DNA of 63,011 nucleotides, counting the filler, from Collodictyon triciliatum (taxonomy: Eukaryota), in NCBI GenBank assembly GCA_043381765.1. It is 11 parts of 11 records of this genome, joined end to end, with 100 filler letters (N's around TTAATTAATTAA, not from the genome) between each part and the next. Parts side by side here need not be neighbours in the genome. Positions count along the whole stretch, not along the records: positions 51,746 to 58,108 come from JBHJMP010004516.1; 10 more parts are not named here. One strand, given 5' to 3'. Numbering within the stretch: the stretch's first letter is position 1; each line of letters starts with the position of its first letter. Shown here one piece after another: positions 5,954 through 61,362 of the stretch. The translations under genes were made by a program, and so were the position numbers. The notes beneath the pieces are model-generated. The model made no database searches and had not been told where the DNA came from. It worked only from the letters and a program-made list of their open reading frames with translations.

Positions 5954-6319
5954 GGACTGTAAAGTTGATATTGTTCATATATAAAAGTTAAAATAATGAA
6001 TAACTTGAGCATTTCTCCTTGAAACATTTTTAATAGAGAAAATTGTATTTTGCACGAATAAATGTAATAGTAGATTCCTAACAACACTCCAAAAAAAATT
6101 AAAATGATTTGTTTCAGGTGTAAATGTACTGGTGTTGAAATGATTAACTATATATTATTAAAGAAACGTGTAAAAAAAAAAAACAATGGATACCTTTGCT
6201 GGATAAGACGATTCCATTTGTAATAAGCTTAGTCCGAAAAGTAGATGAATTTTTAATTTTTTTTTGAAAGAAAAGGCTTCTTTAACAAAGATTTTTGATA
6301 AACATTCAATATCAGGATA

Positions 6320-6373
<54 letters not shown>

Positions 6374-6473
6374 NNNNNNNNNNNNNNNNNNNNNNNNNNN
6401 NNNNNNNNNNNNNNNNNTTAATTAATTAANNNNNNNNNNNNNNNNNNNNNNNNNNNNNNNNNNNNNNNNNNNN
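6374..6473. other. Artificial contig spacer (44 N + TTAATTAATTAA + 44 N)
   Basis: The identical 100-bp spacer, with stops in all six frames, recurs at 12847-12946, 19319-19418, 25793-25892, 32261-32360, 38724-38823, 45186-45285, 51646-51745, 58109-58208 and 61136-61235. Genes on either side of a spacer are not known to be neighbours. Confidence 0.98.
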
Positions 6474-12632: not shown

Positions 12633-12959
12633 GTAAGTCCACAACCCAGCCTCTGCCTCTCAGCCACACCCTTCGCCAAAAAACCCTGACAAAAGGCTCT
12701 ACCTTTGTCTAAAGCAACTTTTTAGCCGATAGCACGTTTATTTTAAACAAAAAAAGAAACAAAAGAAGAAACAAAAGAAGAAACAAAAGAAGAAACAAAA
12801 GAAGAAAAAAAAAAAAAAAAAAAAAAAAAAAAACAAAAAAAAAAAANNNNNNNNNNNNNNNNNNNNNNNNNNNNNNNNNNNNNNNNNNNNTTAATTAATT
12901 AANNNNNNNNNNNNNNNNNNNNNNNNNNNNNNNNNNNNNNNNNNNNTATGCTAGAGCAG

Positions 12960-19318: not shown

Positions 19319-19418
19319 NNNNNNNNNNNNNNNNNNNNNNNNNNNNNNNNNNNNNNNNNNNNTTAATTAATTAANNNNNNNNNNNNNNNNNNNNNNNNNN
19401 NNNNNNNNNNNNNNNNNN

Positions 19419-21894: not shown

Positions 21895-24148
21895 TTAGTA
21901 AGCCACCATGTATAGAGCACCACGGTACCACCCGTGAACACTATCATAAGGAGCCCCGACTATAATGCCGTCATGGTTGGTGGCAACAGAGTATCCGAAC
22001 AAGTCAGAGCCATCTTGAAGCCCCAGAGAGTATCTTGTCAAGGACCAGTACCCGAATCCGGTGTTTTGCACGACATAAGCAGAGCCTGTCATAAAAGAAA
22101 GAAGGATATACCCTAGTAAATGCTATGATATATCAAGAACCTGATGATAATACATTAAATAGACCTTACAAAAAGAACGGGCGATTTCTATTAGATTTAT
22201 AATATATTTTCATGGTTACCCCTGGAGTTGTAATAGCTTCCGTAGTATGAATAGGAGGTGGCACCAACAACGAGGTATTGTTTCTCGCGGTTGTATGCCA
22301 GCGACACACCGAACGAAGTGACATCAGCATTATTCGGAGTGATGTAATTAGCCTCGTCGAACGTGCCGAATTGGTTGAGGATGTAGTGGTACACCGACCC
22401 ACCCATGTATGTGTATTCTGAATCTTCATATGCTGCCACGAACAGATTACTTCCGTCAAGGATGACCTTGTTTCCAAAGTAGTAAGAAAACGAGCGACTG
22501 GGATAGATTGATTGTACAAGAACAGCGGAATCGAATGTGTACGTAAACACATAGACTATCCCATAACCAACATCACCTGACACAACCAACAGTCCACCAG
22601 AGGCAGAGACTGAGACACCAAATCCCTCGCCATACCGAATGTTTGGAGACTTAACTTCCAGATATCTCGGACCACGCACACGGTCAATCGACTTTGGATA
22701 ATGGTATCCGAACACAACACCACTAGATTCGTATCCATTTGTGTTTGCATAAGGGGAAGATATGAAGGTAAAGTTACCATCCATAGCCATAGAGAATCCA
22801 AAGTATTGGTATGATTGCTCAATTGGGGACGTCAGGATGAATTTTCGAGTGTAGCGATTGGTGGCAGGGGAGTAATGGAATCCATAAACAGCAGACTTCT
22901 CTGTCCCGGTGTCCCAGTCATAGAGGGATTTTGACTGAATGAGGAGGCGTCTGTTCTGAAGAACGACATTTGTACCAAAGTAGCTCGAGGAGACCTTACC
23001 AAGATACTGGAAGTGTTGTTTTAGTGTCCATCCTTCAGGCGACGTTTGAAGAATATACACCTTTCCGCAAGGAATACCGGTTTGGCTGAACTCCGAACAG
23101 AATGGTTGTGTCACTGCAGCTTCATTTCCATCAGCAGAGACAGAGTAACCAAGTTCATTGGACTTACCGTGGATGTTGCGATAAACCATGGCGTTACCAG
23201 GGAGAGACGGGCTCTGTGACGGGGTTGGTGAGGCTGTATTACTCTGGGATTGGGTAGGGGTCGATGAATGAGTCGGAGTAGGAAATGAGTCTCCTGTAAA
23301 AAAAAAAAAAAGAGTTAAATTTAGATTATGTGCGGATGGTTCCCTATTATTTGTATTGTCCTTGTAAGTTTTTCTCTATAAGATTAGAAAAAGTAAAAAT
23401 AAAATAAAATCATAGTGCAGAGATAGAACGTAGTCGTACCAACGTTCCAGACCCAAACACCAGGAACGCCGATGTTGGACTCGTATGTGGCACGGTTAAC
23501 TTCACCACGAGAAAAATCCGGACTGAAGTAGCTGTAGCCGTCTCCGAGATTGACACCGATTGTGTAGAGGTAGTCTGGCTGATTTAGGCCGCCATCAGGA
23601 TAGTTGAAGACAACAAAGAAACTCGACTCGTCAGTCACAATAGCGGCTTGGAAAGTGTTGTGGGGATATGTTATGACAGGGAACATCCCAACTTCATACC
23701 AAGTAGCCAGGTAAATACGCGAGGCGGTGAAGGAACTGTGAGCTCCACTAGGATCACTGGTGCGGATGAAATCCTCGTATTGGACTGAGTACATGCTGTT
23801 TGAGGGAATGATCTCATAGTATACTTTCCCAGCTCCGTCCCCACTGCTGCCTCGAGTGTCGAGATCGGCCCAGAGTGGCGCAATTAGGGCACCTCCACTA
23901 GTAGTTGGGAAAGGGATAGAACTTGGAGAAGTGTTGTCCTCACCGAGCGAAATGAGTCCATTCGTGCAGACATAGATGCTATTGAAGGTCTGGCCGAAGA
24001 AGTTTACGTAGCCGCTTAAGCCTTCACAGTAGTCATCATTGGCGGTGATGTACGCAGCTGTATTGTCCAAGTTGTAGGGCAGAAGCTGAGTGGCTGACAC
24101 ACAGACAAGCACACTAGCGACTACAGCGAGTACAGCACGATGATGCAT
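21895..24148 (-). CDS. Secreted NIDO-domain + S/T/P linker + FG-GAP repeat (integrin-alpha-like beta-propeller) protein
   Basis: Signal peptide MHHRAVLAVVASVLVCVSA. NIDO motifs NSIYVCTNGLIS, LIAPLWADLDTR, NTFQAAIVTD and SNIGVPGVWVW. FG-GAP repeats FGFSMAMDG, FGVSVSASG, FGVSLA and FGYSVA...IIVGAPYD. Exons 23440-24148, 22220-23293 and 21895-22085 are in compatible phase. Confidence 0.88.
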
Positions 24149-25099
24149 AATGTTCTCTTGCTTCACTGATGGCCTCAAAGCGAAGGCAAGTAGGATCGCT
24201 GTGAAACATGAAGGTGAGTTGCTTGTGTCTAGAGCCACAGCGGGGTTGAAATGAAGTACTGAAATTCTTTTTTTTTTTTAATGGACATATAACGTAACCA
24301 AAAGAAAATATTTAGAGCATGTGGAGTCTAGGCTTATATCTGGTTCAACTTTAAAACAGGGCTTGTGTCCGAAAGTGTGAATGGAAAGAAAAAAATAATA
24401 TAATAGGAGAGGGGGAGAGAGAGGATGCTTCGATGGAATCGTAGCACTGGTGTGTTAGTCTTGTGCCGTTTGAGTTTGATACATAACCACTCTATGTCTC
24501 TGTGATTGTGATGGGGAACAAGACTGAGGCTCGAGTGGCAGGTGCCCCAGATCATTCTTTCTCTGTCCGATCTTCCGCGCTTGTTTGAGTTTTGTTAGTG
24601 ACAGGCCAAATGCTGTGGTTGCAGATTCTGCGCAATTGCAGCGGGCAGGTAGGTTTGGGCCCCCTGCGGTTCAGCCGCCCTCCTTTTCCTTCCTTTTATA
24701 CCCGATTGCCTGAGACTTCTTCTGCCTGTGAGGGCGAGTGGCTTTTCTACTTGCCGGTGTCTGGCGTCGCGGGGGCTTGGCAATGATTTGAGAATGTTCC
24801 TAAACTTCACTGATTGGTTTTCTTTCCATGAATATTTGAATGAACTTGGCTTTCTTGCACGGCAATCATGTAATCGCGTTCTGGAAAAAGGCAAATCTAT
24901 AATGAAGCAAGTCCCGCAGCAACTATTCCAACCAGTAAAAGCTGTGTCTTCCTGCGTGACTGCCTTGTGTGGATGACAAAAGTGGTAATGATATTGGCTT
25001 CTTCTGCTTCTATTTTTTTTGGTGGAAACCGCGATTTCCGTCCGGTAGGTAAAAGTTCCTTCCGGCGGTGTGTGGGCGAATGAAAATTTCACAAGTTGT

Positions 25100-25792: not shown

Positions 25793-26004
25793 NNNNNNNN
25801 NNNNNNNNNNNNNNNNNNNNNNNNNNNNNNNNNNNNTTAATTAATTAANNNNNNNNNNNNNNNNNNNNNNNNNNNNNNNNNNNNNNNNNNNNTTCTTTTT
25901 TTTCTTTCTTTTTTTTCTTTCTTTTTTTTCTTTCTTTTTTTTCTTTCTTTTTTTTCTTTCTTTTTTTTCTTTCTTTTTTTTCTTTCTTTTTTCTTTCCCT
26001 CACC

Positions 26005-29977: not shown

Positions 29978-31756
29978 ATGAGCCAGCCAGCCTCAAACAC
30001 ACGCGACCCCGCAAAACAGGCTGCAGGCCGAGCCCAGCGGAAGCGCAGCAAGCCGCGTGGGACACATGCAGAGCCACACGACAACAGCACCAAGGATGAC
30101 ATTCTCTACAACCATGGGTCGAGCATAAGGAAACGTCCATCCAAATCCACTGTCAACGAGACCGAATCCTTGCCCGCACACCACCCAACAAAGCCTCCCC
30201 AATCGCAGACATCTTGCAACTCAGCATCGGCAGATGCAGACATCTGCGAGACCGCGTCTGCAAACACATCGTCTTTCCTGTCCATCCACCATTTCCACGA
30301 AGCGCAAGACTCGCTTCACCGCCACTATCTCTACAGAGACATCAGCCCTTCGCAAAGAGACCTGGCCAGCTCAAACCCGGACACAAGCACCACACTCAGA
30401 CACATGGCTCAGAGTCCCGTAAAAGGCTGCGGCGATGTGGTTGCCAGTTCGACCGCAGCGTTTTCGATGGCGTCTGTCCAGACATCCCCGCAAGTAACGC
30501 ACGCACCCATCGCATCCATCCACGGGCCGTTTTACACCTTCGCGCCCTTCGATATGGCCCACGTACTTGCTCTCTTCTCATCACCCCACACTCACTGCTA
30601 CCTGTCTATCTTAAAGACAACTCCACATCCACATCCACATCCACATCCACATCCACATCCACATCCACATCCACATCCACATCCACATCCACATCCACAT
30701 CCACATCCACATACAATTGCGAAGACTAAAATTCGACTGGGCACCCACAAGCAACAGAGCAACGGAGCGACTGCGGGCCACCCACCACAACTGCAGCTCC
30801 AATCCCACTCATATTCGTATCTGCACTCGCACTCAGCGTCGCAGCCACAACACTCCATGTCGTTTCCTTTCATCCAGCCGCTATACTTGACGCCGATACT
30901 GCCTTGTCCACAACAACCCGTCGCCTTCGGCCCGGTTGCATCGCACTACGCACCATCACAGCACCAATCTCTGCCACATCACACGGTCCACCACGTGACA
31001 TCCTCGGCACCCATCATCATCTATCCAGCCGTAGCGATACACGCACAGCATCCGCACTCGCACCACCCAGCCGGAAGTGCGCCTCCGACTGACGAACACG
31101 CTGCAAAAGGCCACGCAGCCGATGCGTATGAAACTATGGTGGCACCCAACACTACGTCCACACCAGAAGAAACAATCAGGGGCGATTCCAGTGTGCAGAC
31201 ACAGGGCACTTGGTTAGACATGCTGCCTGATGAAACAAGACATGCGCCCGAGAGCCCCGCCGCCCCGCCAGCCAAGCCGGAATCTGCAGCCACAAAGAAG
31301 CCTCGGCTGCGCTCAAAGTCGACCAAACCCAAGGCGCTGAATGGATTTATGCTCTACAGCAGCGAGAATAGGAAACACGTTTTGGCCGCAAACTTATTCC
31401 TCAGCACAAATGACCTGGCTGTTGAGATGGGCAAGTATGATTTCCATTTTTCATTCTCTTTTCTTCCCTTTTTCTCGCTTTTTTTCCTTTTTTGTCTCTG
31501 TTTTTTCCTCACTAAATCCTCCAGCAAGCAAATAGACAATTCCACCTCTACCCCGCACAACGCACATATGCATACCCATCATTACTGCGCCGTGTTACAG
31601 ATTTTATACATTTTCTTGCATTATATATATATGCGCCCTAAATCATATCCCAGGCGGTGGAACGCACTCCCTGACGATGTGAGGATTGGTTTCAAGCAGA
31701 GAGCAAAGGAGATCAATATCCTACGCAACAAGGCGCTTGAGCAGTCCAACTCATGA
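29978..31756 (+). CDS. HMG-box transcription factor (SOX/TCF/MATA-type) with a disordered His/Pro-rich N-terminus; one intron at 31435-31653
   Basis: KPKALNGFMLYSSENRKHVLAANLFLSTNDLAVEMGK|RWNALPDDVRIGFKQRAKE forms an HMG box once the 219-nt GT-AG intron is removed. A (CCACAT)n repeat at 30623-30712 encodes poly-(Pro-His). Confidence 0.88.
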   Translation: MSQPASNTRDPAKQAAGRAQRKRSKPRGTHAEPHDNSTKDDILYNHGSSIRKRPSKSTVNETESLPAHHPTKPPQSQTSCNSASADADICETASANTSSFLSIHHFHEAQDSLHRHYLYRDISPSQRDLASSNPDTSTTLRHMAQSPVKGCGDVVASSTAAFSMASVQTSPQVTHAPIASIHGPFYTFAPFDMAHVLALFSSPHTHCYLSILKTTPHPHPHPHPHPHPHPHPHPHPHPHPHPHPHTIAKTKIRLGTHKQQSNGATAGHPPQLQLQSHSYSYLHSHSASQPQHSMSFPFIQPLYLTPILPCPQQPVAFGPVASHYAPSQHQSLPHHTVHHVTSSAPIIIYPAVAIHAQHPHSHHPAGSAPPTDEHAAKGHAADAYETMVAPNTTSTPEETIRGDSSVQTQGTWLDMLPDETRHAPESPAAPPAKPESAATKKPRLRSKSTKPKALNGFMLYSSENRKHVLAANLFLSTNDLAVEMGKYDFHFSFSFLPFFSLFFLFCLCFFLTKSSSKQIDNSTSTPHNAHMHTHHYCAVLQILYIFLHYIYMRPKSYPRRWNALPDDVRIGFKQRAKEINILRNKALEQSNS

Positions 31757-32260: not shown

Positions 32261-32773
32261 NNNNNNNNNNNNNNNNNNNNNNNNNNNNNNNNNNNNNNNN
32301 NNNNTTAATTAATTAANNNNNNNNNNNNNNNNNNNNNNNNNNNNNNNNNNNNNNNNNNNNAAACAAAAAAAACCAAAAAAAACCAAAAAAAACCAAAAAA
32401 AAACCAAAAAAACCAAAAAAACCAAAAAAACCAAAAAAACCAAAAAAACCAAAAAAACCAAAAAAACCAAAAAAAACCAAAAAAAACCAAAAAAAACCAA
32501 AAAAAACCAAAAAAACCAAAAAAACCAAAAAACCCAAAAAAACCCAAAAAAACCCAAAAAAACCCAAAAAAACCCAAAAAAACCCAAAAAAACCCAAAAA
32601 ACCCAAAAAACCCAAAATAAAACGAGTTTGTAATACTACCCATCTGTAGCGTAAGGTAAATTAAGCCCGCTGGAATATGAAATACAAAAAGAATTAACAC
32701 CTTGATATATATGAATGTCATCATATGATTCGAGAAATTCAACTAGATTGGTATCTTTCATTTACACGCAGCA

Positions 32774-38163: not shown

Positions 38164-38823
38164 ATTAAAAACCAACCCTATGATTGGACTTCTCATCAAA
38201 GCGTACATAACAACCCAACGATTGAAAAAAACCACAAAGTCATAGTCTTTCTTTTTCCCAGGAATTTATTGATATGGGTATGATGGGTTTCCAAAAGCAG
38301 CCATTTCTTGACATCATTGTTTATGCAGATAATATACCTATTATAGATATGTTTAATGAAGATTCACTAAAACTCACTGCAACAAATCAATCGTGCGTCC
38401 CTTATTTCGATTTCTGAAGCGGCCACGATATTCTCTATATCGCACATCCTTCTAAATGGTTCTGCCTGTTACCCACATTATCCGCCCGGTACCATCAAAG
38501 GCAGAAGAAAATAAGAAAGAATAAAAAGAATAAGAAGAATAAAAAGAAATAGATAAAACGGAATAAAACAGAATTAAAAGGATAAAAAATAATAAGAAAG
38601 AATAAGAAAGAATAAGAAAGAATAAGAAAGAATAAGAAAGAATAAAAAGAAATAGATAAAACGGAATAAAACAGAATTAAAAGGATAAAAAATAATAAGA
38701 ACAAAAAAAAAGAACAAAAAAATNNNNNNNNNNNNNNNNNNNNNNNNNNNNNNNNNNNNNNNNNNNNTTAATTAATTAANNNNNNNNNNNNNNNNNNNNN
38801 NNNNNNNNNNNNNNNNNNNNNNN

Positions 38824-52423: not shown

Positions 52424-52548
52424 TTATTAAACTCTACAGTCCCACCACAGCAAGAACTGCGTTTGATATGGTCGACTGTATGCTTCCATATTCTCTCTAT
52501 TACTAACACGATAGTCATAATCAATGATATTATTGAAACTGGTTCCAT
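52414..52548 (-). CDS. 44-aa putative viral membrane microprotein (not in the ORF track)
   Basis: MEPVSIISLIMTIVLVIERIWKHTVDHIKRSSCCGGTVEFNNNI* has an N-terminal hydrophobic helix and a basic Cys-Cys motif. It starts 18 bp after the MCP stop, preceded by AAAAAAATATATGCTATATA. Confidence 0.75.
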   Translation of the reverse strand: MEPVSIISLIMTIVLVIERIWKHTVDHIKRSSCCGGTVEFNNNI

Positions 52549-52566
52549 TATATAGCATATATTTTT

Positions 52567-54168
52567 TTATTCGACTTTATAAACCTGTTGATTATTTTGT
52601 ATTTCTAGCACGGCATCATATAGCGAGGCAATTATAACATTGTAAGTTGTTGGTGCCCCACCAGTTTGAAATTCCAATCTCAAGCTAACCAGTCCTGACC
52701 CTGATGCAGCTAGGTCGACTCCTGCAACCTCCCCCTCGGAAATGTCCAGTACTTTTTTCATATTGAAAGCTAAAATAAAATTACTTGGAGTAACAGCACA
52801 CACTTCACGCATATATCTTAAGCCAGTATCATTTAGACGAGCACCAGCTAAATCAGTCTGTGGGTTAGCAGTATTTCTGGCATAATTTGCATTAGGGTCA
52901 AGTGCAACAGTCGCTTGATACGCAGTCCAACTCTGACCATGATGAGAATATGCGGGATATATATTAACATCGGATATTCCACCAGTGTTATTAGCTCCAG
53001 TATGAAACAGGTTTTGAACTGTGCCATATCGAGGTCCTATAAAATCTTGCCCGGAAAAGCTCCACACGCCCGCTGTCTCACTTCGTAAGTAAGCAAGACC
53101 TAAAGACTTCTGCAGTTCTATAAATGCATGCGCACTCTGATTAGTGCAGTCTAATGGTGTAAGTGGATAATAGAATGAACCTACTTGAAGCTGGGCCGTT
53201 TTCAGATTTGGAAAATGCAAACGGTCACGGCCCGCAATATTGAACTTAGCCTGCTCATTAACTGCAAAAAACGATATAAACAATGCATTGAGCGATTTCA
53301 CGGTATCATTAATATTATATGTTATCGCATTAGTTCCAGACGGCAATGAATAAAGGCTTGTCCTAAACGTCTTAAAGGGAATTGTTAGGCTTTGGCCACG
53401 TGTTATGGCAGCCGCCAATTGTGAATGATAACTTGGCTCCATTCTAACTAAGTCATATGTCATATAACAATTAGTCAAAGTATAAGTGCAATCAATCGAA
53501 GCACCAATATTATTAACATTATCTCGAGTGTAACACACCATACACTCATTGGCAGGTGCCAGTTCAATTTCTATTTGGAATGCTGTGACGCTGTCAATCA
53601 ATGAAGTGGATAAAAGGCCTGAATAGTTGGAAATACCTGACAATCGAAGGGGAAATGCATAGTTCCTTTTGGCCAGAGTACTATCAAATACATTTACAAT
53701 TGCACCATTTGCATCTTTACCGCTTCTATGATATAATATACGTTCAATTGTGGTGCCAATACCCATTAGGGCTTTACCGGGACAGTTGTTGTGGTCAGAT
53801 GATACCATATTCATCAACATACTGTCAACGTAATTGTATCTTTGTATATCTTCAATTAAAAACTGCGTCCCCTTTCTTATTTTTAAATTATGAATAATAC
53901 TTTCTATTGAATTACAAAAATAAATATCTGTTGTATTGATGGCACCGTTTCCCACAAAGGAAGGTGTGACGTCACAGTGAAACATAAGAGTATCCATATC
54001 GAGCTCCATACCTGACTCGCTCGGTATGTTAAACAAAAGTCGGTCGACATTTCCAGGGCCAAATGTACCCGCATTGAATGGAGAGATACGTGTAGTGTGG
54101 CGAGCCATTACAGAATCATTAAAGTTTTGTACGCGTTTGTATCTTGCTTCATTTGGTAGTTCAGACAT
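52567..54168 (-). CDS. Major capsid protein, double jelly-roll, Polinton-like virus type (533 aa)
   Basis: N-terminal RISPFNAGTFGP...LLFNIP...LDMDTLMF and SIESIIHNLKIRKG..LIEDIQRYN. Middle FQIEIELAP, YTLTNCYMTYDLV, SLNALF, QLQVGSFYYP and AFIELQKS. C-terminal FILAFNMKK...GVDL...YDAVLEI. This is the motif order of PLV major capsid proteins, and the gene is intronless. Confidence 0.88.
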   Translation of the reverse strand: MSELPNEARYKRVQNFNDSVMARHTTRISPFNAGTFGPGNVDRLLFNIPSESGMELDMDTLMFHCDVTPSFVGNGAINTTDIYFCNSIESIIHNLKIRKGTQFLIEDIQRYNYVDSMLMNMVSSDHNNCPGKALMGIGTTIERILYHRSGKDANGAIVNVFDSTLAKRNYAFPLRLSGISNYSGLLSTSLIDSVTAFQIEIELAPANECMVCYTRDNVNNIGASIDCTYTLTNCYMTYDLVRMEPSYHSQLAAAITRGQSLTIPFKTFRTSLYSLPSGTNAITYNINDTVKSLNALFISFFAVNEQAKFNIAGRDRLHFPNLKTAQLQVGSFYYPLTPLDCTNQSAHAFIELQKSLGLAYLRSETAGVWSFSGQDFIGPRYGTVQNLFHTGANNTGGISDVNIYPAYSHHGQSWTAYQATVALDPNANYARNTANPQTDLAGARLNDTGLRYMREVCAVTPSNFILAFNMKKVLDISEGEVAGVDLAASGSGLVSLRLEFQTGGAPTTYNVIIASLYDAVLEIQNNQQVYKVE

Positions 54169-54198
54169 ATTTATACAAAGAAAATATTTTTTTATAAT

Positions 54199-54543
54199 TT
54201 ATTTAAACGCGGCTTGTCCAAAATCATACGCACGTTTCAAATCCTGAATCCCTTGCCCGGCCCGTTGCGAATTAAAATTTTTAAAATCAATATTACCCAA
54301 TGTTGAAAGTCCACGCCCCAGTGCGTGTGTTGCATCAATTGTATTCACCAGTGGATTATAAACAGTTGAGGCAAGTTGATATATTGGGGTTGCCCTGACC
54401 GCAAAATCCAAGACCCCACCTGAAGCTTTATTGACTTCATCATATTTTCTGTTGATTGTATTCAAACGACTGCTGGCTATCTCTGCTCTATTGATTAAAA
54501 ATCGTCCTACACCTCGTGCTATTTTTCGTCCATCGAATCGCAT
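54199..54543 (-). CDS. 114-aa putative virion protein with a basic amphipathic N-terminus
   Basis: The likely start is the ATG at 54543 (MRFDGRKIARGVGRFLINRAEIAS...), which avoids overlap with the divergent gene. The protein is Gly/Ala-rich and helical and ends 30 bp before the MCP ATG. Confidence 0.72.
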   Translation of the reverse strand: MRFDGRKIARGVGRFLINRAEIASSRLNTINRKYDEVNKASGGVLDFAVRATPIYQLASTVYNPLVNTIDATHALGRGLSTLGNIDFKNFNSQRAGQGIQDLKRAYDFGQAAFK

Positions 54544-54576
54544 AATATAACTAAGATTTTTTTTAATTGTAATAGT
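54544..54576. promoter_or_regulatory. 33-bp divergent intergenic region, putative bidirectional viral promoter
   Basis: It lies between the ATGs at 54543 (-) and 54577 (+). The minus strand reads AAAAAAAATCTTAGTTATATT-ATG, similar to the leaders of the MCP and 44-aa genes. Confidence 0.55.
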
Positions 54577-57500
54577 ATGGTTCGTCCTCCTCCTCATAAT
54601 TGGCCTTTTAAACCACAATATACACCAGATGAGTTACGAGACTGGTCAGCTGCTGAATTGAAGGCTTATATCAGAAGACATTATCCTGGTATTAAAGCTG
54701 CTAGTAAAGGAGAGATGACTGACGAGATTTTATTGGCGCAAGGTAATCATCCAAATCAGCATCAAAGAGACCCTTTTTTATTGAGACAAAATATAGAAGC
54801 TTTGGAGGAAAGATTGGCTGATGCAAATAGGCAATTAAATTTAGCTAATGCCCAAGTAGCAAATATTCCACTAATTGCACAACAAAATGCAGGACAAATA
54901 GCGGCTGTTCAAGCGCAAGCAGCTCAGTTACAACAACAGATTCAAGGTTTACGTTTGGGTATAGTTGCAATGCAACAAAACCACGTTCAACAAATGGCTA
55001 ATTTTGCAGCCCAGGTAAATGTTGCAGCTCAAGGTGTTATAGCACCATTACAACAAAATAATCAAGCACTTCAAGCTCAAGTGCAACAACTTAACGCAGG
55101 ATTTTTAGCACAGAACGCACAATCAAATCAAATAATACAAAACTTACAAGATGTGATAAGGAGAAATCAGGCAGGGCAAGTGATACAAGCGCAATTTCTT
55201 CGACATAGGTTAGCTGTCGCAAATCAAATTAGTCAACAAATGTTTCAAATGCTACAAGCACAAAATGCAAATTTAGGAAATCAACAAATTCAAGACCAAG
55301 CACAAATAGCTGCTGATGCAGTTAGAATAGTAAATTTGCAAGCTACTATAAATAATCAATTAGCTCAAATAAACCAAGATGCAGCTACAATATTAAATTT
55401 ACAAGGACAGACACAAAATGATGCAGCACAAATAGCGAGACTCACTGCGCAGAATGCACAAGACCAAGCTACAATTCAGAATTTACACATACGAATACTA
55501 GCCCAGCGGCGGGAGCAACGACGTACGATTGATGCATACAGAAGTGATATGAGGCAGTTGCTTCAAGACAATCAAGCACAATATCAATTAATTGGACAAA
55601 TGAATGTCGCTATACAACAAGACCAAGCAACAATTCAAAGATTGGGTGGCTTTTTACAAATACATCAACAAAATGAGGCTGCTATGAGAGCAGATATACA
55701 AAGACGGCAGACTATTATTCAAAATTTAAGAGCAACTATTGCAGGACACGAAGCAGAAATTCGAAGGTTAAAAACAAGCGAACGTAATTTAACACGACAA
55801 TTAAACCAGGAACAAGCTAATAATAATCAGTTGACAGCTGATAATCGTAGATTACGAGGTGATGTAGCCTTAAATAGACAGGATATACAAATACTTACCG
55901 CTCAAGTACAACAAGAGCGACAAAATGTTCAAGCAGCTCAAGGTAATTTATTAGCTGCTCAACAGCAACTAGTAGCAGAACAAGCGGCGCTTGCGGCATT
56001 GCGTGTTAATTTAGCTGCTCTTCAAGCACAAATGGTTGCAGACCAAGCAACTATACAAAATTTATTAAATGCAAATCAACAATTTAATGCCCAACATCAA
56101 GCGGATGCACAACTAATGCAACAAATGGCAGCTGGAAATCTCCTGTTATTGGGAGGAGCAAATCAACTTGAAATAGATCTTCGTGCTTATATTAATAATT
56201 TATTGCAATTGATGGACCCAAATATAAACGCAAATATATTAACACCTTTAGTGCAAACATTGGCACCACTATATCAAATGTTAAATAGGGCACCTCCAAA
56301 TATACCTATTATTCGTGGAGCCGCTCCAGCTCCTCCTCCAGTGCCACCCGCACCACCTGCAGCTCCAGGAGGCCCACCACCACCACCAGCTCCAGGAGGA
56401 GGCGGAGGTGTATTACCCGCATTTCCCCCAGGCCCTCCCGGTGCATTAGCACCTCAACCCCCATTGGGTCCAGGAGCAGGAGTCATAGGAGGAGCCCCCT
56501 TGCCAGCATTTGTCCCGGGTGGTCCCGCACCGGTACCACCAGCCGTCCCACCTGGACCTGGTGTTCCTATTGGACGGCCTTTACCCCCAGGAAATCCAGC
56601 TTTACCCGCTTTTCCCCCAGGCCCTCCCGGTGCATTAGCACCTCAACCCCCATTGGGTCCAGGAGCAGGAGTCATAGGAGGCGCCGCCTTACCACCATTT
56701 ATCCCGGGTGGTCCCGCACCAGCCCCCGCCCCAGCCCCCGCACCAGGCGGCCTAGCTGGAATTGGATTTGCAGGACCTCAACCACCACCTATTGCCAGGC
56801 CTGTTGCGCCAGTGGGACCAGGAGCAGGAGTCATAGGAGGCGTCCCCTTGCCGCCATTTATTGGTCCCGCACCAGCCCCCGCACCAGCCCCCGCACCCAA
56901 CCCTCCACCAAATCCACTCGTCCCAGGAAGAGGTAGGCCTCCAATAGGACCACCTTTGCCGATTGCACCGTTTGGTCCACCCCCAGTGCCACCCCCGCCG
57001 AATCCCGCTATTGTTATTCTTCCACCCGCACCAATTGTACCCGCACCAATTGTACCCGCACCAGCCCCCGCCCCAGCCCCCGCTCCAATTGTACCCGCTC
57101 CAGCCCCCGCACCTAGACCAGGTCCGATTAGAGGACCTAGACTTGTTTTACCGCCAGTGCCCGCACCCGCACCAGTGCCCGCACCCGCACCAGTGCCCGC
57201 ACCAGCCCCATTACCCGTGCCCGCACCAGCCCCATTACCCGTGCCCGCACCAGTACCGATACCCCCTCCTGCTGTAGTTGCTCCTCCACCGGCCCCAATG
57301 ATAAATAATTTTCTTGGTGATGGTATGGCAACTAGACGAGGCAAAGATGTTAATAATTCAAGTAATATTCAAAGTTTATTGGATGATGTCGAATATGCAT
57401 TTCAATCTATAGGTAATCTAAGCGAAGAAGTTAATCCACCACGAGTAATTAATACATTCCCATATGACCTTCCAAGAATAAGAAGGCGAGGACTTCGAAG

Positions 57501-57987
57501 TCCAAATGATATCAAAGATGCGCTTAATCGAATGGGGATGGCTGATTGGGGAGATGTCACGGCTAATCCTAAGAAATTAATATATTTTTTAAACAACATG
57601 AGTAACCCTGAATTACCATTGCAATCTATGGTATATCAAATGTATAAAAATAACACATTACCACTCGTATATGATCCTAAACCTTCTGAATATGATACTA
57701 TTACCCCTACACGCATTATATCAACTTTACCAGGTAGTGAAAAAAATAAATCGATTTTAGTAGAACCTAACAAAGAGGCTAAAATAGTAGGTGTAAAACC
57801 AAGTCGAGGAACTATTATTCGACGAAAGGGTATCAATTATGAAGTTAATGATGGTGGTAAGAAGATGACTTTTGGTTCACATCAAAATGCTAGTTATTAC
57901 GTTAAAAATAAAAACAAATCTTATTTTGGCCCTAGCACATTTTTAGGAGACCAGCGATTAAAAACTCGCGGTCAGGTTCATTTATAA
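54577..57987 (+). CDS. 1136-aa viral protein: HeH/Rho_N-like N-terminus, long Gln/Asn/Ala coiled coil, Pro/Gly/Ala-rich region, basic C-terminal domain
   Basis: Uninterrupted 3.4-kb ORF. It has TPDELRDWSAAELKAYIRRH...ASKGEMTDEIL at the start, recurring QDQATIQNL heptads, polyproline and (AP)n tracts, and a globular-looking last ~220 aa. Confidence 0.9.
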   Translation: MVRPPPHNWPFKPQYTPDELRDWSAAELKAYIRRHYPGIKAASKGEMTDEILLAQGNHPNQHQRDPFLLRQNIEALEERLADANRQLNLANAQVANIPLIAQQNAGQIAAVQAQAAQLQQQIQGLRLGIVAMQQNHVQQMANFAAQVNVAAQGVIAPLQQNNQALQAQVQQLNAGFLAQNAQSNQIIQNLQDVIRRNQAGQVIQAQFLRHRLAVANQISQQMFQMLQAQNANLGNQQIQDQAQIAADAVRIVNLQATINNQLAQINQDAATILNLQGQTQNDAAQIARLTAQNAQDQATIQNLHIRILAQRREQRRTIDAYRSDMRQLLQDNQAQYQLIGQMNVAIQQDQATIQRLGGFLQIHQQNEAAMRADIQRRQTIIQNLRATIAGHEAEIRRLKTSERNLTRQLNQEQANNNQLTADNRRLRGDVALNRQDIQILTAQVQQERQNVQAAQGNLLAAQQQLVAEQAALAALRVNLAALQAQMVADQATIQNLLNANQQFNAQHQADAQLMQQMAAGNLLLLGGANQLEIDLRAYINNLLQLMDPNINANILTPLVQTLAPLYQMLNRAPPNIPIIRGAAPAPPPVPPAPPAAPGGPPPPPAPGGGGGVLPAFPPGPPGALAPQPPLGPGAGVIGGAPLPAFVPGGPAPVPPAVPPGPGVPIGRPLPPGNPALPAFPPGPPGALAPQPPLGPGAGVIGGAALPPFIPGGPAPAPAPAPAPGGLAGIGFAGPQPPPIARPVAPVGPGAGVIGGVPLPPFIGPAPAPAPAPAPNPPPNPLVPGRGRPPIGPPLPIAPFGPPPVPPPPNPAIVILPPAPIVPAPIVPAPAPAPAPAPIVPAPAPAPRPGPIRGPRLVLPPVPAPAPVPAPAPVPAPAPLPVPAPAPLPVPAPVPIPPPAVVAPPPAPMINNFLGDGMATRRGKDVNNSSNIQSLLDDVEYAFQSIGNLSEEVNPPRVINTFPYDLPRIRRRGLRSPNDIKDALNRMGMADWGDVTANPKKLIYFLNNMSNPELPLQSMVYQMYKNNTLPLVYDPKPSEYDTITPTRIISTLPGSEKNKSILVEPNKEAKIVGVKPSRGTIIRRKGINYEVNDGGKKMTFGSHQNASYYVKNKNKSYFGPSTFLGDQRLKTRGQVHL

Positions 57988-58018
57988 ACAATTGTTACTA
58001 TTAATAAGAATTGTTTAT
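57984..58018. terminator. Bidirectional hairpin overlapping the stop codons of two convergent genes
   Basis: ATAAACAATT (57984-57993) pairs perfectly with AATTGTTTAT (58009-58018), extended by TTA/TAA after one mismatch. Each arm contains a TAA stop (57985-57987 on +, 58015-58017 on -). Confidence 0.75.
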
Positions 58019-58107
58019 GGACTTACGACACCAACGACATACCAGCGACTGTCTGCTGTTACTGTGCGACGATAATTTATTACATCAACAACTGTCCCAT
58101 TTACTAA
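58015..58107 (-). CDS. C-terminus of a further convergent viral gene, truncated by the contig end
   Basis: Open frame ...LVNGTVVDVINYRRTVTADSRWYVVGVVSP* is beta-strand-like and ends in the shared hairpin. Confidence 0.65.
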   Translation of the reverse strand, partial: LVNGTVVDVINYRRTVTADSRWYVVGVVSP

Positions 58108-58210
58108 TNNNNNNNNNNNNNNNNNNNNNNNNNNNNNNNNNNNNNNNNNNNNTTAATTAATTAANNNNNNNNNNNNNNNNNNNNNNNNNNNNNNNNNNNN
58201 NNNNNNNNTT

Positions 58211-60916: not shown

Positions 60917-61362
60917 CTTTCCTTGTGTGCTTTTTTTTATTGTTTTCATTATTTTGTTTATTATTGTGTTTATTATTGTGTTTATTATTGTGTTTATTAT
61001 TGTGTTTATTATTGTGTTTATTATTGTGTTTATTATTGTGTTTATTATTGTGTTTATTATTGTGTTTATTATTGTGTTTATTATTGTGTTTATTATTGTG
61101 TTTATTATTGTGTTTATTATTGTGTTTATTATTGTNNNNNNNNNNNNNNNNNNNNNNNNNNNNNNNNNNNNNNNNNNNNTTAATTAATTAANNNNNNNNN
61201 NNNNNNNNNNNNNNNNNNNNNNNNNNNNNNNNNNNTTTTTTAATGTCTTTGGGAAAGGTTTCAGTTTTTTTTTAAAAAATTTGAAAAAAAAAAAAAAAAA
61301 AAAAAAAAACGAAATCTTTCTTGAATGTTTATGTCGTTATAATCCTTTATAATGCACTAGTC

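Follow-up and report, generated by a model that had tools for sequence, protein, structure and literature searches.

A giant open reading frame beside the major capsid protein gene of a polinton-like viral contig: an undescribed C-terminal domain and a possible virion fibre or tether

The Giant Open Reading Frame and Its Locus

The window, i.e., the whole stretch of DNA analysed, is 63,011 nucleotides (nt) long with its linkers included and was joined from 11 records of the genome assembly GCA_043381765.1 of Collodictyon triciliatum. One of these records, JBHJMP010004516.1, is a viral contig whose largest gene is a giant open reading frame (ORF) of 1136 amino acids (aa), about twice the length of the next-longest ORF in the window. 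The giant ORF runs divergently from a gene for a major capsid protein (MCP) of the double-jelly-roll (DJR) type, and its predicted product consists of a short N-terminal part, a long coiled-coil region, a proline-rich spacer and a basic C-terminal domain (C-domain). A first-pass annotation of this DNA had proposed the same four parts; the coiled coil, the proline-rich region and the basic C-domain are retained here, while the HeH/SAP motif that it placed at the N-terminus is not.

Independent freshwater metagenome contigs cover the giant ORF, which excludes an error in the assembly of this record, and the conserved layout that places it next to the DJR capsid gene marks it as a gene of the virus rather than a stray host gene located away from viral genes. 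No Pfam family matches its product at E ≤ 0.01, and a search against PHROG returned a single weak coiled-coil match. The first-pass annotation had matched the ORF with no standard core gene of polinton-like viruses (PLVs), and likewise no described family was recognised by Pfam, PHROG, PDB sequence or fold; a full-length match to a characterised PLV or Polinton family did not occur in the Pfam, PHROG and PDB comparisons. The giant ORF is a real viral gene, rare but conserved, and its product combines an orphan C-domain with a low-complexity body of an unusual kind.

The Conserved C-terminal Domain

The C-domain (residues 913–1136) is of ordinary composition, with a net charge of +11 and an isoelectric point (pI) of 9.7, as expected from the basic domain described earlier, and it is where all detectable conservation lies. 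In BLASTP comparison with the closest relative, P0048, only residues 910–1122 align (30% identity, E = 2e-19), and the second-best segment has an E-value of 0.14. The last ~220 residues of two complete ORFs found in metagenome loci (L002 and L004) are 24–29% identical to residues 913–1136. A C-domain profile made from three sequences and searched against 1.84 billion representatives retrieved 16 proteins at E ≤ 1e-3, 14 of them at E ≤ 1e-10; in all 14 (492–1448 aa, plus a few fragments) the match runs to the very end of the protein. A word-based search added the relatives P0072–P0074. With the L004 member of 467 aa included, the proteins of the family range from 467 to 1448 aa, and no name or Pfam domain was found among the C-domain relatives. 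No C-domain relatives were found in the viral contig scans, in one genome contig scan or in a word-based search with residues 915–1136 among near lengths. The C-terminal residue is a near-invariant Tyr, present in 14 of 15 aligned C-domains, in which the tail reads K-N-L/I-S-Q/K-A/T-I/V-Y; the window copy deviates at this end, with K-T-R-G-Q-V-H-L at the equivalent position and thus Leu in place of Tyr. By sequence comparison, the C-domain, which is ~170–220 residues long and located at the extreme C-terminus, defines a putative protein family of about 14 clusters, of which the PLV literature covered gave no earlier description.

In the structural model of the C-domain, the better-modelled parts are helices at domain residues 18–117 and a three-stranded sheet with a helix at 172–203. 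The top matches in a wide fold search were generic helical bundles (Z 4.6), and the sheet and helix tied with PTB and AP2 domains at Z 3.3–3.6, which is noise level (AP2 DNA-binding domain: Z 3.3, root-mean-square deviation 2.6, 43 residues). The last 45 residues might resemble MBD/AP2-type sheet-and-helix DNA binders, but no profile supported this likeness. A PDB profile search returned fibrinogen gamma alone (E = 0.85), PHROGs gave only matches at E ≥ 0.026 to families without known function, Pfam gave nothing below E = 0.037 for C-domain fragments, and ESM Atlas held nothing usable for the window C-domain or for P0054. A complex prediction for the MCP and the C-domain, made with alignments unused and with the fold of the partner uncertain, had a score of 0.00 and a mark of 0.34. 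As no counterpart turned up in current libraries, the C-domain is a clean target for structure determination.

The Coiled-coil Region, the Proline-rich Spacer and the N-terminus

Residues 66–565 consist mainly of Q (21%), A (17%), L (12%), N (11%), I (8%) and R (7%), with one Lys in 500 residues. The periodicity of I, L, V, M and F in this region peaks at 3.5 residues with a z-score of 10.95, which none of 500 shuffles reached, and the mean local power at 3.5 is 0.717, compared with 0.204 ± 0.047 in shuffled sequences; the proline-rich region (z −1.3) and the C-domain (z 1.4) lack such a signal. The power at 3.5 exceeds that at 3.6, which indicates a heptad coiled coil and not isolated amphipathic helices. 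Of only six prolines, three (548, 557 and 564) are within the last 18 residues. A tally of the a and d register for oligomeric state covered 13 positions each only. Residues 66–565 are hence predicted to form an alpha-helical coiled coil, and both the heptad region with scarce Lys that had been placed at residues ~70–545 and its recurring DQATIQ units are borne out, the latter with three copies that start at residues 296, 349 and 489.

The spacer that follows, previously outlined as a Pro/Gly/Ala-rich region at ~575–910, is delimited at residues 566–912 and contains 40% P, 18% A, 14% G and 8% V but lacks K, D, E, S and T. It is made up mainly of (PA)n, PV and a repeat that contains GPGAGVIGG, and it includes one PPPPP run, one PPPP run and 53 overlapping PxxP patterns. 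The underlying DNA contains tandem units of 12–24 nt and a longer repeat, with 189 and 159 nt between the starts of successive copies; this longer repeat encodes the GPGAGVIGG-containing unit in three copies. These repeats indicate that the spacer has expanded through tandem duplication. By arithmetic, if fully extended, the coiled coil would be ~74 nm and the spacer up to ~108 nm long, or ~180 nm combined.

In most of the ten full-length relatives, the parts ahead of the C-domain are variable N-termini, long charged coiled coils of E, K and Q, and a Gly/Pro segment of tens of residues; the coiled-coil rods of the relatives are 400–700 residues long. Conservation does not extend ahead of the C-domain, and the lineage of the window protein is thus peculiar in its Q/N/A coiled coil and its proline-rich spacer of 347 residues.

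The resemblance to a HeH/SAP/Rho_N helix pair that had been suggested at residues ~15–55 finds no such support. Residues 1–70 have no match to the Pfam SAP, HeH and Rho_N profiles at E ≤ 10, a limit at which a Pfam scan of the same residues returned only DUF1192 and DUF7669 (E 0.15–0.18), and BLASTP revealed no similarity between the window protein and the N-termini of its relatives. A profile of four N-terminal motifs had the 30 kDa subunit of vaccinia RNA polymerase as its top PDB match (E = 0.043), and one relative, P0052, has a SAP_new25 match near its N-terminus (E = 2.2e-5) that is sub-threshold, at 24.4 bits against a cut-off of 26.3. A SAP-like motif may thus exist in the protein family, and in the window protein it would be a resemblance of pattern only. 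No literature that connects polinton-like viruses with SAP domains was found.

The Capsid Gene Cluster and Its Conservation

The MCP has 39 homologues in the protein collection, all without names and on contigs of up to 17.2 kb. Its AlphaFold model (predicted template modelling score 0.71, mean predicted local distance difference test score (pLDDT) 67.6) was matched by Foldseek in PDB to the MCP of Singapore grouper iridovirus (SGIV; E = 4.8e-17) and to that of Sputnik (1.5e-14), followed by those of Paramecium bursaria chlorella virus 1 (PBCV-1) and mavirus, while its matches in BFVD are to capsid proteins of nucleocytoplasmic large DNA viruses (NCLDV), virophages and adintoviruses. Judged from these matches, the divergent neighbour of the giant ORF is a DJR MCP. 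It is acidic (pI 5.8); its relatives are 507–597 aa long, and no listed contig that bears an MCP or a member of the giant ORF family exceeds 17.2 kb. The first-pass annotation had described the giant ORF as divergently paired with the capsid genes; the pairing holds for the MCP gene and the plural does not, as the MCP is the only one shown to be a capsid protein. The positions of all features are given in Table 1.

Table 1. Features of the viral contig, with positions along the window.
Feature	Position	Strand	Basis or remark
Giant ORF (P0001), 1136 aa, ATG to TAA	54577..57987, stop included	+	ORF reading; independent metagenome contigs cover the ORF
N-terminal 65 residues, helix-pair-like pattern at ~15–55	54577..54771	+	HeH/SAP identity unproven
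Q/N/A/L/I-rich heptad coiled-coil region, residues 66–565	54772..56271	+	Composition, periodicity
Uncharged Pro/Ala/Gly/Val spacer, residues 566–912	56272..57312	+	Tandem repeats; strain-variable length
Conserved basic C-terminal domain, residues 913–1136	57313..57984	+	Sole part with detectable relatives
Major capsid protein, 533 aa, double jelly roll	52567..54168	-	Homologues, model, Foldseek, BFVD
Small basic protein, 114 aa, pI 10.3	54199..54543 (full ORF to 54618)	-	Upstream of the MCP gene, same strand
AT-rich divergent intergenic gap, 33 nt, between giant ORF and small-protein gene	54544..54576	.	Similar short gaps in L002 and L004
44-aa ORF, hydrophobic N-terminal segment	52414..52548	-	Directly downstream of the MCP gene, same strand
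Artificial linker, left edge of viral contig	51646..51745	.	N44-TTAATTAATTAA-N44
Artificial linker, right edge of viral contig	58109..58208	.	N44-TTAATTAATTAA-N44

Two small genes accompany the MCP gene. The small basic protein probably starts at position 54543, where the Met is conserved in an alignment with four relatives. The 44-aa ORF, in which basic residues and a Cys-Cys-Gly-Gly motif follow the hydrophobic segment, is conserved in four metagenome loci (L002, L003, L004 and L005) with a coding-type substitution pattern and may encode a small virion membrane protein.

When the MCP alignment was used to search metagenome contigs, ten loci were identified, and in five of the five that hold DNA upstream of the small-protein gene a divergent ORF is found 33–101 nt from that gene. 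Two loci, L002 (1015 aa) and L004 (467 aa), contain this large ORF in full, both with the C-domain; in L001, L006 and L008 it leaves the contig, and the C-domain end is out of sight. Syntenic homologues beside the MCP gene, which the first-pass annotation had proposed to look for, are seen in L002 and L004. Two further pairs of a family member and an MCP relative, P0073 (1363 aa) with P0033 on contigs of 17215 nt and P0074 with P0022 on contigs of 5703 nt, are probably co-located, a reading that comes from the equal contig sizes and not from direct sight of both genes. In L004, the family gene is situated between the small-protein/MCP gene pair and two ORFs of 265 and 359 aa. The segment upstream of this 467-aa member (1–2210, + strand) contains a partial 88-aa ORF, the 265-aa ORF, which has a similar C-terminus, and the 359-aa ORF; none of the three has a Pfam match. 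As possible members of one morphogenesis module with the family gene, they may specify vertex or spike proteins. At position 6075 of the same locus, a GIY-YIG-like ORF begins.

Natural Populations

Parts of the viral contig are contained in 17 sequencing runs from 12 studies, with a best share of 0.37. Sixteen of the 17 are labelled as a freshwater, reservoir, lake-water or aquatic metagenome and one has no organism label; no RNA dataset is listed among them. Four metagenome runs were compared along the viral contig. A metagenome contig of 4441 nt covers 52343–57033 and another covers 57220–58001, at an identity of roughly 96–97% as estimated from counts of other letters. Coverage is low to the left of ~52300, and the leftmost 600 nt (51746–52340) are barely covered by the four runs.

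The strains differ in the length of the proline-rich spacer. Two skips, one of 216 nt with 24 letters between and one of 199 nt with 7 letters between, both amount to a net 192 nt, i.e., 64 codons, and the other length changes in this region are +3, −3, +24, +12, −3 and one 2+1 pair. All of these listed changes are net multiples of three, with five further indels outside the listing. As the listed changes keep the frame, the gene appears to be maintained as coding while the length of the spacer drifts. The metagenome contigs part from the window 14 nt past the stop codon of the giant ORF (from 58001), and the next gene downstream seems to be variable. An ATG-initiated frame (58018–58108, + strand) starts 31 nt past the same stop codon and leaves the contig.

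Other Features of the Viral Contig and the Window

Downstream of the capsid cluster, positions 52245–52288 form a perfect loopless palindrome of 22+22 nt, followed by two 31-nt direct repeats (52324–52385). Together, these elements (52245–52385) may serve as a terminator or an origin, or may mark an end of the genome. No tRNA was found on the viral contig.

The window contains ten 100-nt linkers of the form N44-TTAATTAATTAA-N44, located at the two edges of the viral contig (Table 1) and at 6374–6473, 12847–12946, 19319–19418, 25793–25892, 32261–32360, 38724–38823, 45186–45285 and 61136–61235. The 12-mer TTAATTAATTAA places stops in all six frames and is a customary device for joining unplaced contigs. 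The linkers recur about every 6.46 kb and separate pieces of 6360–6374 nt and one of 2927 nt, and the viral contig (51746–58108, 6363 nt) is a piece of its own. As the window is a chain of separate contigs, the eukaryote-type genes nearby are not physical neighbours of the viral gene, and the seeming surroundings of animal-type genes are an artefact of concatenation, which is a caution for similar scans. Eukaryote-type ORFs are found on other pieces at 22197–24238 (− strand), 49479–50141 (+) and 29978–31756 (+). Clear Pfam matches on other pieces are to NIDO (E = 9.1e-30) and FG-GAP (5.1e-10); a caspase-domain match on another piece (5.8e-5) is just above the cut-off, and a 592-aa ORF on a piece of 51% GC has a weak HMG-box match.

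Possible Functions of the Giant ORF Protein

Given the observed anatomy, the pattern of conservation, the synteny with the MCP gene and the upkeep of the reading frame in natural strains, we propose that the giant ORF encodes an elongated, virion-associated fibre or tether that docks via its C-domain, a lineage-specific protein encoded in the capsid cluster of a freshwater PLV. We give this proposal a probability of roughly 0.4. The C-domain would dock onto a conserved viral partner, which may be a capsid vertex or face, an internal membrane or the genome, and the fast-evolving rod and spacer would extend away from this partner, forming a long and flexible virion fibre or tether. One conserved end, a variable rod and spacer, a fixed place by the MCP gene and a small hydrophobic protein are what would be expected of an elongated virion-associated protein. 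A rod of ~74 nm with a spacer of up to ~108 nm is far easier to reconcile with a fibre or tether outside the particle than with an ordered component inside a ~17-kb virus, and the range of lengths in the family together with the 64-codon difference between strains fits a projecting stalk that tolerates changes in length. Among the alternatives offered by the first-pass annotation, which had put a virion fibre beside a tape-measure or scaffold protein, fibre or scaffold remains the most plausible class, and the tape measure is disfavoured by the lengths of the family members.

Several points weigh against a virion fibre or tether. That the protein is in the virion at all, that it oligomerises, that the C-domain docks and that the rod points outward are things that we infer from the features above. 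The C-domains are uniformly basic (pI 9.6–10.1 in the five C-domain-only sequences compared), and this charge, like the sub-threshold SAP match of P0052, suits nucleic-acid binding better than the distal tip of a fibre. Confidence in the C-domain model is modest (mean pLDDT 58.9), and Foldseek found nothing in PDB at E ≤ 1e-3 with it. Adenovirus fibre and reovirus sigma1 anchor by the N-terminus and not by the C-terminus. Finally, no gene for a penton or packaging ATPase, both expected of a PLV genome of ~15–40 kb, was found on the truncated viral contig of 6363 nt, where the module is incompletely seen.

A more specific version of this proposal, which we consider doubtful, is that the basic C-domain is a new fold that anchors a C-terminally docked coiled-coil fibre, in which an elastin-like or polyproline spacer would act as an entropic spring whose length is tuned in each strain by in-frame gain and loss of repeats so as to reach a host structure. 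Alternatively, within the same doubtful version, a polinton-like virus that contains a membrane would use the protein to capture host membrane or chromatin, in the manner of a golgin tether.

Of the rival explanations, the one that survives best, although we still hold it to be unlikely, is that of an assembly scaffold or MCP chaperone, i.e., an elongated helical protein that would bind the MCP via its basic C-domain and be absent from the particle or present in it transiently. The tight and conserved adjacency to the MCP gene is consistent with such a role, as are the pairing of a small, basic conserved domain with an acidic MCP and a variable repeat region that tolerates indels. However, the rods of the relatives, at 400–700 residues, far exceed the expected capsid radius of a ~17-kb virus, the length of the relatives varies threefold, and Pfam, PHROG and PDB profile searches revealed no homology to a known scaffold or chaperone.

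A smaller chance goes to a genome-associated protein, either a core protein or a tether between genome and capsid, and less likely a terminal protein; its C-domain would bind DNA, as would a SAP-like motif at the N-terminus of some members. The basic charge of the C-domains, the SAP_new25 match of P0052, the sheet and helix that form the final element of the C-domain model with its one weak AP2 tie, and the near-invariant C-terminal Tyr all point in this direction. Nevertheless, the SAP motif is unsupported in the window protein, the fold ties are at noise level and the window copy ends in Leu. The gene is also found by a capsid gene, with no replication gene seen beside the family gene in the metagenome loci read, and a rod plus spacer of ~180 nm is hard to fit inside a small capsid.

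It is improbable that the protein acts inside the cell to manipulate the host, whether by phase separation or by recruitment of SH3, profilin or WW partners in a viral factory. Although its Q/N-rich and proline-rich low-complexity composition and its many PxxP patterns could serve such ends, the Q/N-rich and long proline-rich features are peculiar to the window copy, the relatives having charged E/K/Q coils and shorter Gly/Pro segments, and what is conserved is the C-domain and the place beside the MCP gene. For the formin-FH1/WASP-like mimic suggested earlier, several runs of at least five prolines beside an FH2 or WH2 domain were looked for and this candidate is disfavoured: the spacer contains a single PPPPP and a single PPPP run, Pfam recognised no domain in the protein, FH2 and WH2 included, and the Gly/Pro segment of the relatives is much shorter. 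A tape measure for capsid size, which would be expected to keep a constant length among viruses with like capsids, is very improbable. Although long, extended and encoded beside the MCP gene, the family members span 467–1448 aa, against 507–597 aa for the MCPs and 17.2 kb at most for the listed contigs, and a difference of 64 codons separates strains that are ~96–97% identical.

If the giant ORF protein is a virion fibre, it would be a candidate determinant of host attachment for a group of viruses without a known attachment protein, and a handle by which uncultured viruses could be linked to their hosts.

Comparison with Known Systems

Adenovirus fibre and reovirus sigma1 are elongated, oligomeric appendages with a conserved docking end and a variable remainder, and the giant ORF protein resembles them in having one conserved end and a remainder of variable length. 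These two proteins dock by the N-terminus and carry a globular receptor-binding head, whereas the conserved end is C-terminal in the giant ORF protein and its non-coiled N-terminal part is ~65 residues long. Scaffolds of the P22 gp8 type have an elongated, helical form and bind the coat protein through a small basic element at the C-terminus, and their gene adjoins the MCP gene; pB602L of African swine fever virus (ASFV) and adenovirus 100K are capsid chaperones, and pB602L carries a hypervariable tandem-repeat region. The giant ORF protein shares with P22 gp8 and pB602L the gene that adjoins the MCP gene, the elongated helical form and the small basic C-terminal part, but its family is much larger, is variable in length (467–1448 aa) and has no detected homology to them. 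With the FH1 region of formins and with WASP, it has in common a proline-rich region with many PxxP patterns; unlike theirs, its spacer lacks charged and hydroxyl residues, is not accompanied by FH2 or WH2 and is missing in its long version from the relatives. The spacer looks closer to Ala-Pro rigid linkers or elastin-like spacers.

In the accessible parts of the PLV literature, the core genes are the MCP, penton and ATPase genes, and most PLV genes are hypothetical (Bellas and Sommaruga, 2021; PMC7805220). The available part of their 2026 framework preprint (10.64898/2026.06.19.733378) has a section on replication modules and methyltransferases only. The terms coiled, fibre, tape measure and scaffold were found in none of the accessible parts of these two sources and of 10.64898/2026.10.13.758929, and no description of the C-domain family was found in the polinton-like virus literature covered, with supplementary cluster tables outside that coverage. 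In the part of Starrett et al. (2021; PMC8502044) that was available, the maps of related small double-stranded DNA (dsDNA) viruses label as "Fiber" ORFs that are tail-fibre-like "or other coiled-coil proteins", so long coiled-coil ORFs in such viruses have already been noticed, if generically. The "Fiber" ORFs of midsize eukaryotic linear dsDNA (MELD) and adintovirus-like viruses, as far as that part describes them, are alike in being long coiled coils of small eukaryotic dsDNA viruses with DJR capsids and in having no experimental characterisation; the present family, which is likened to them by description, is set apart by a basic C-domain of its own that has no match in Pfam, PHROGs or PDB. 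By this analogy, the giant ORF protein would belong with the uncharacterised, coiled-coil, fibre-like proteins of small DJR dsDNA viruses.

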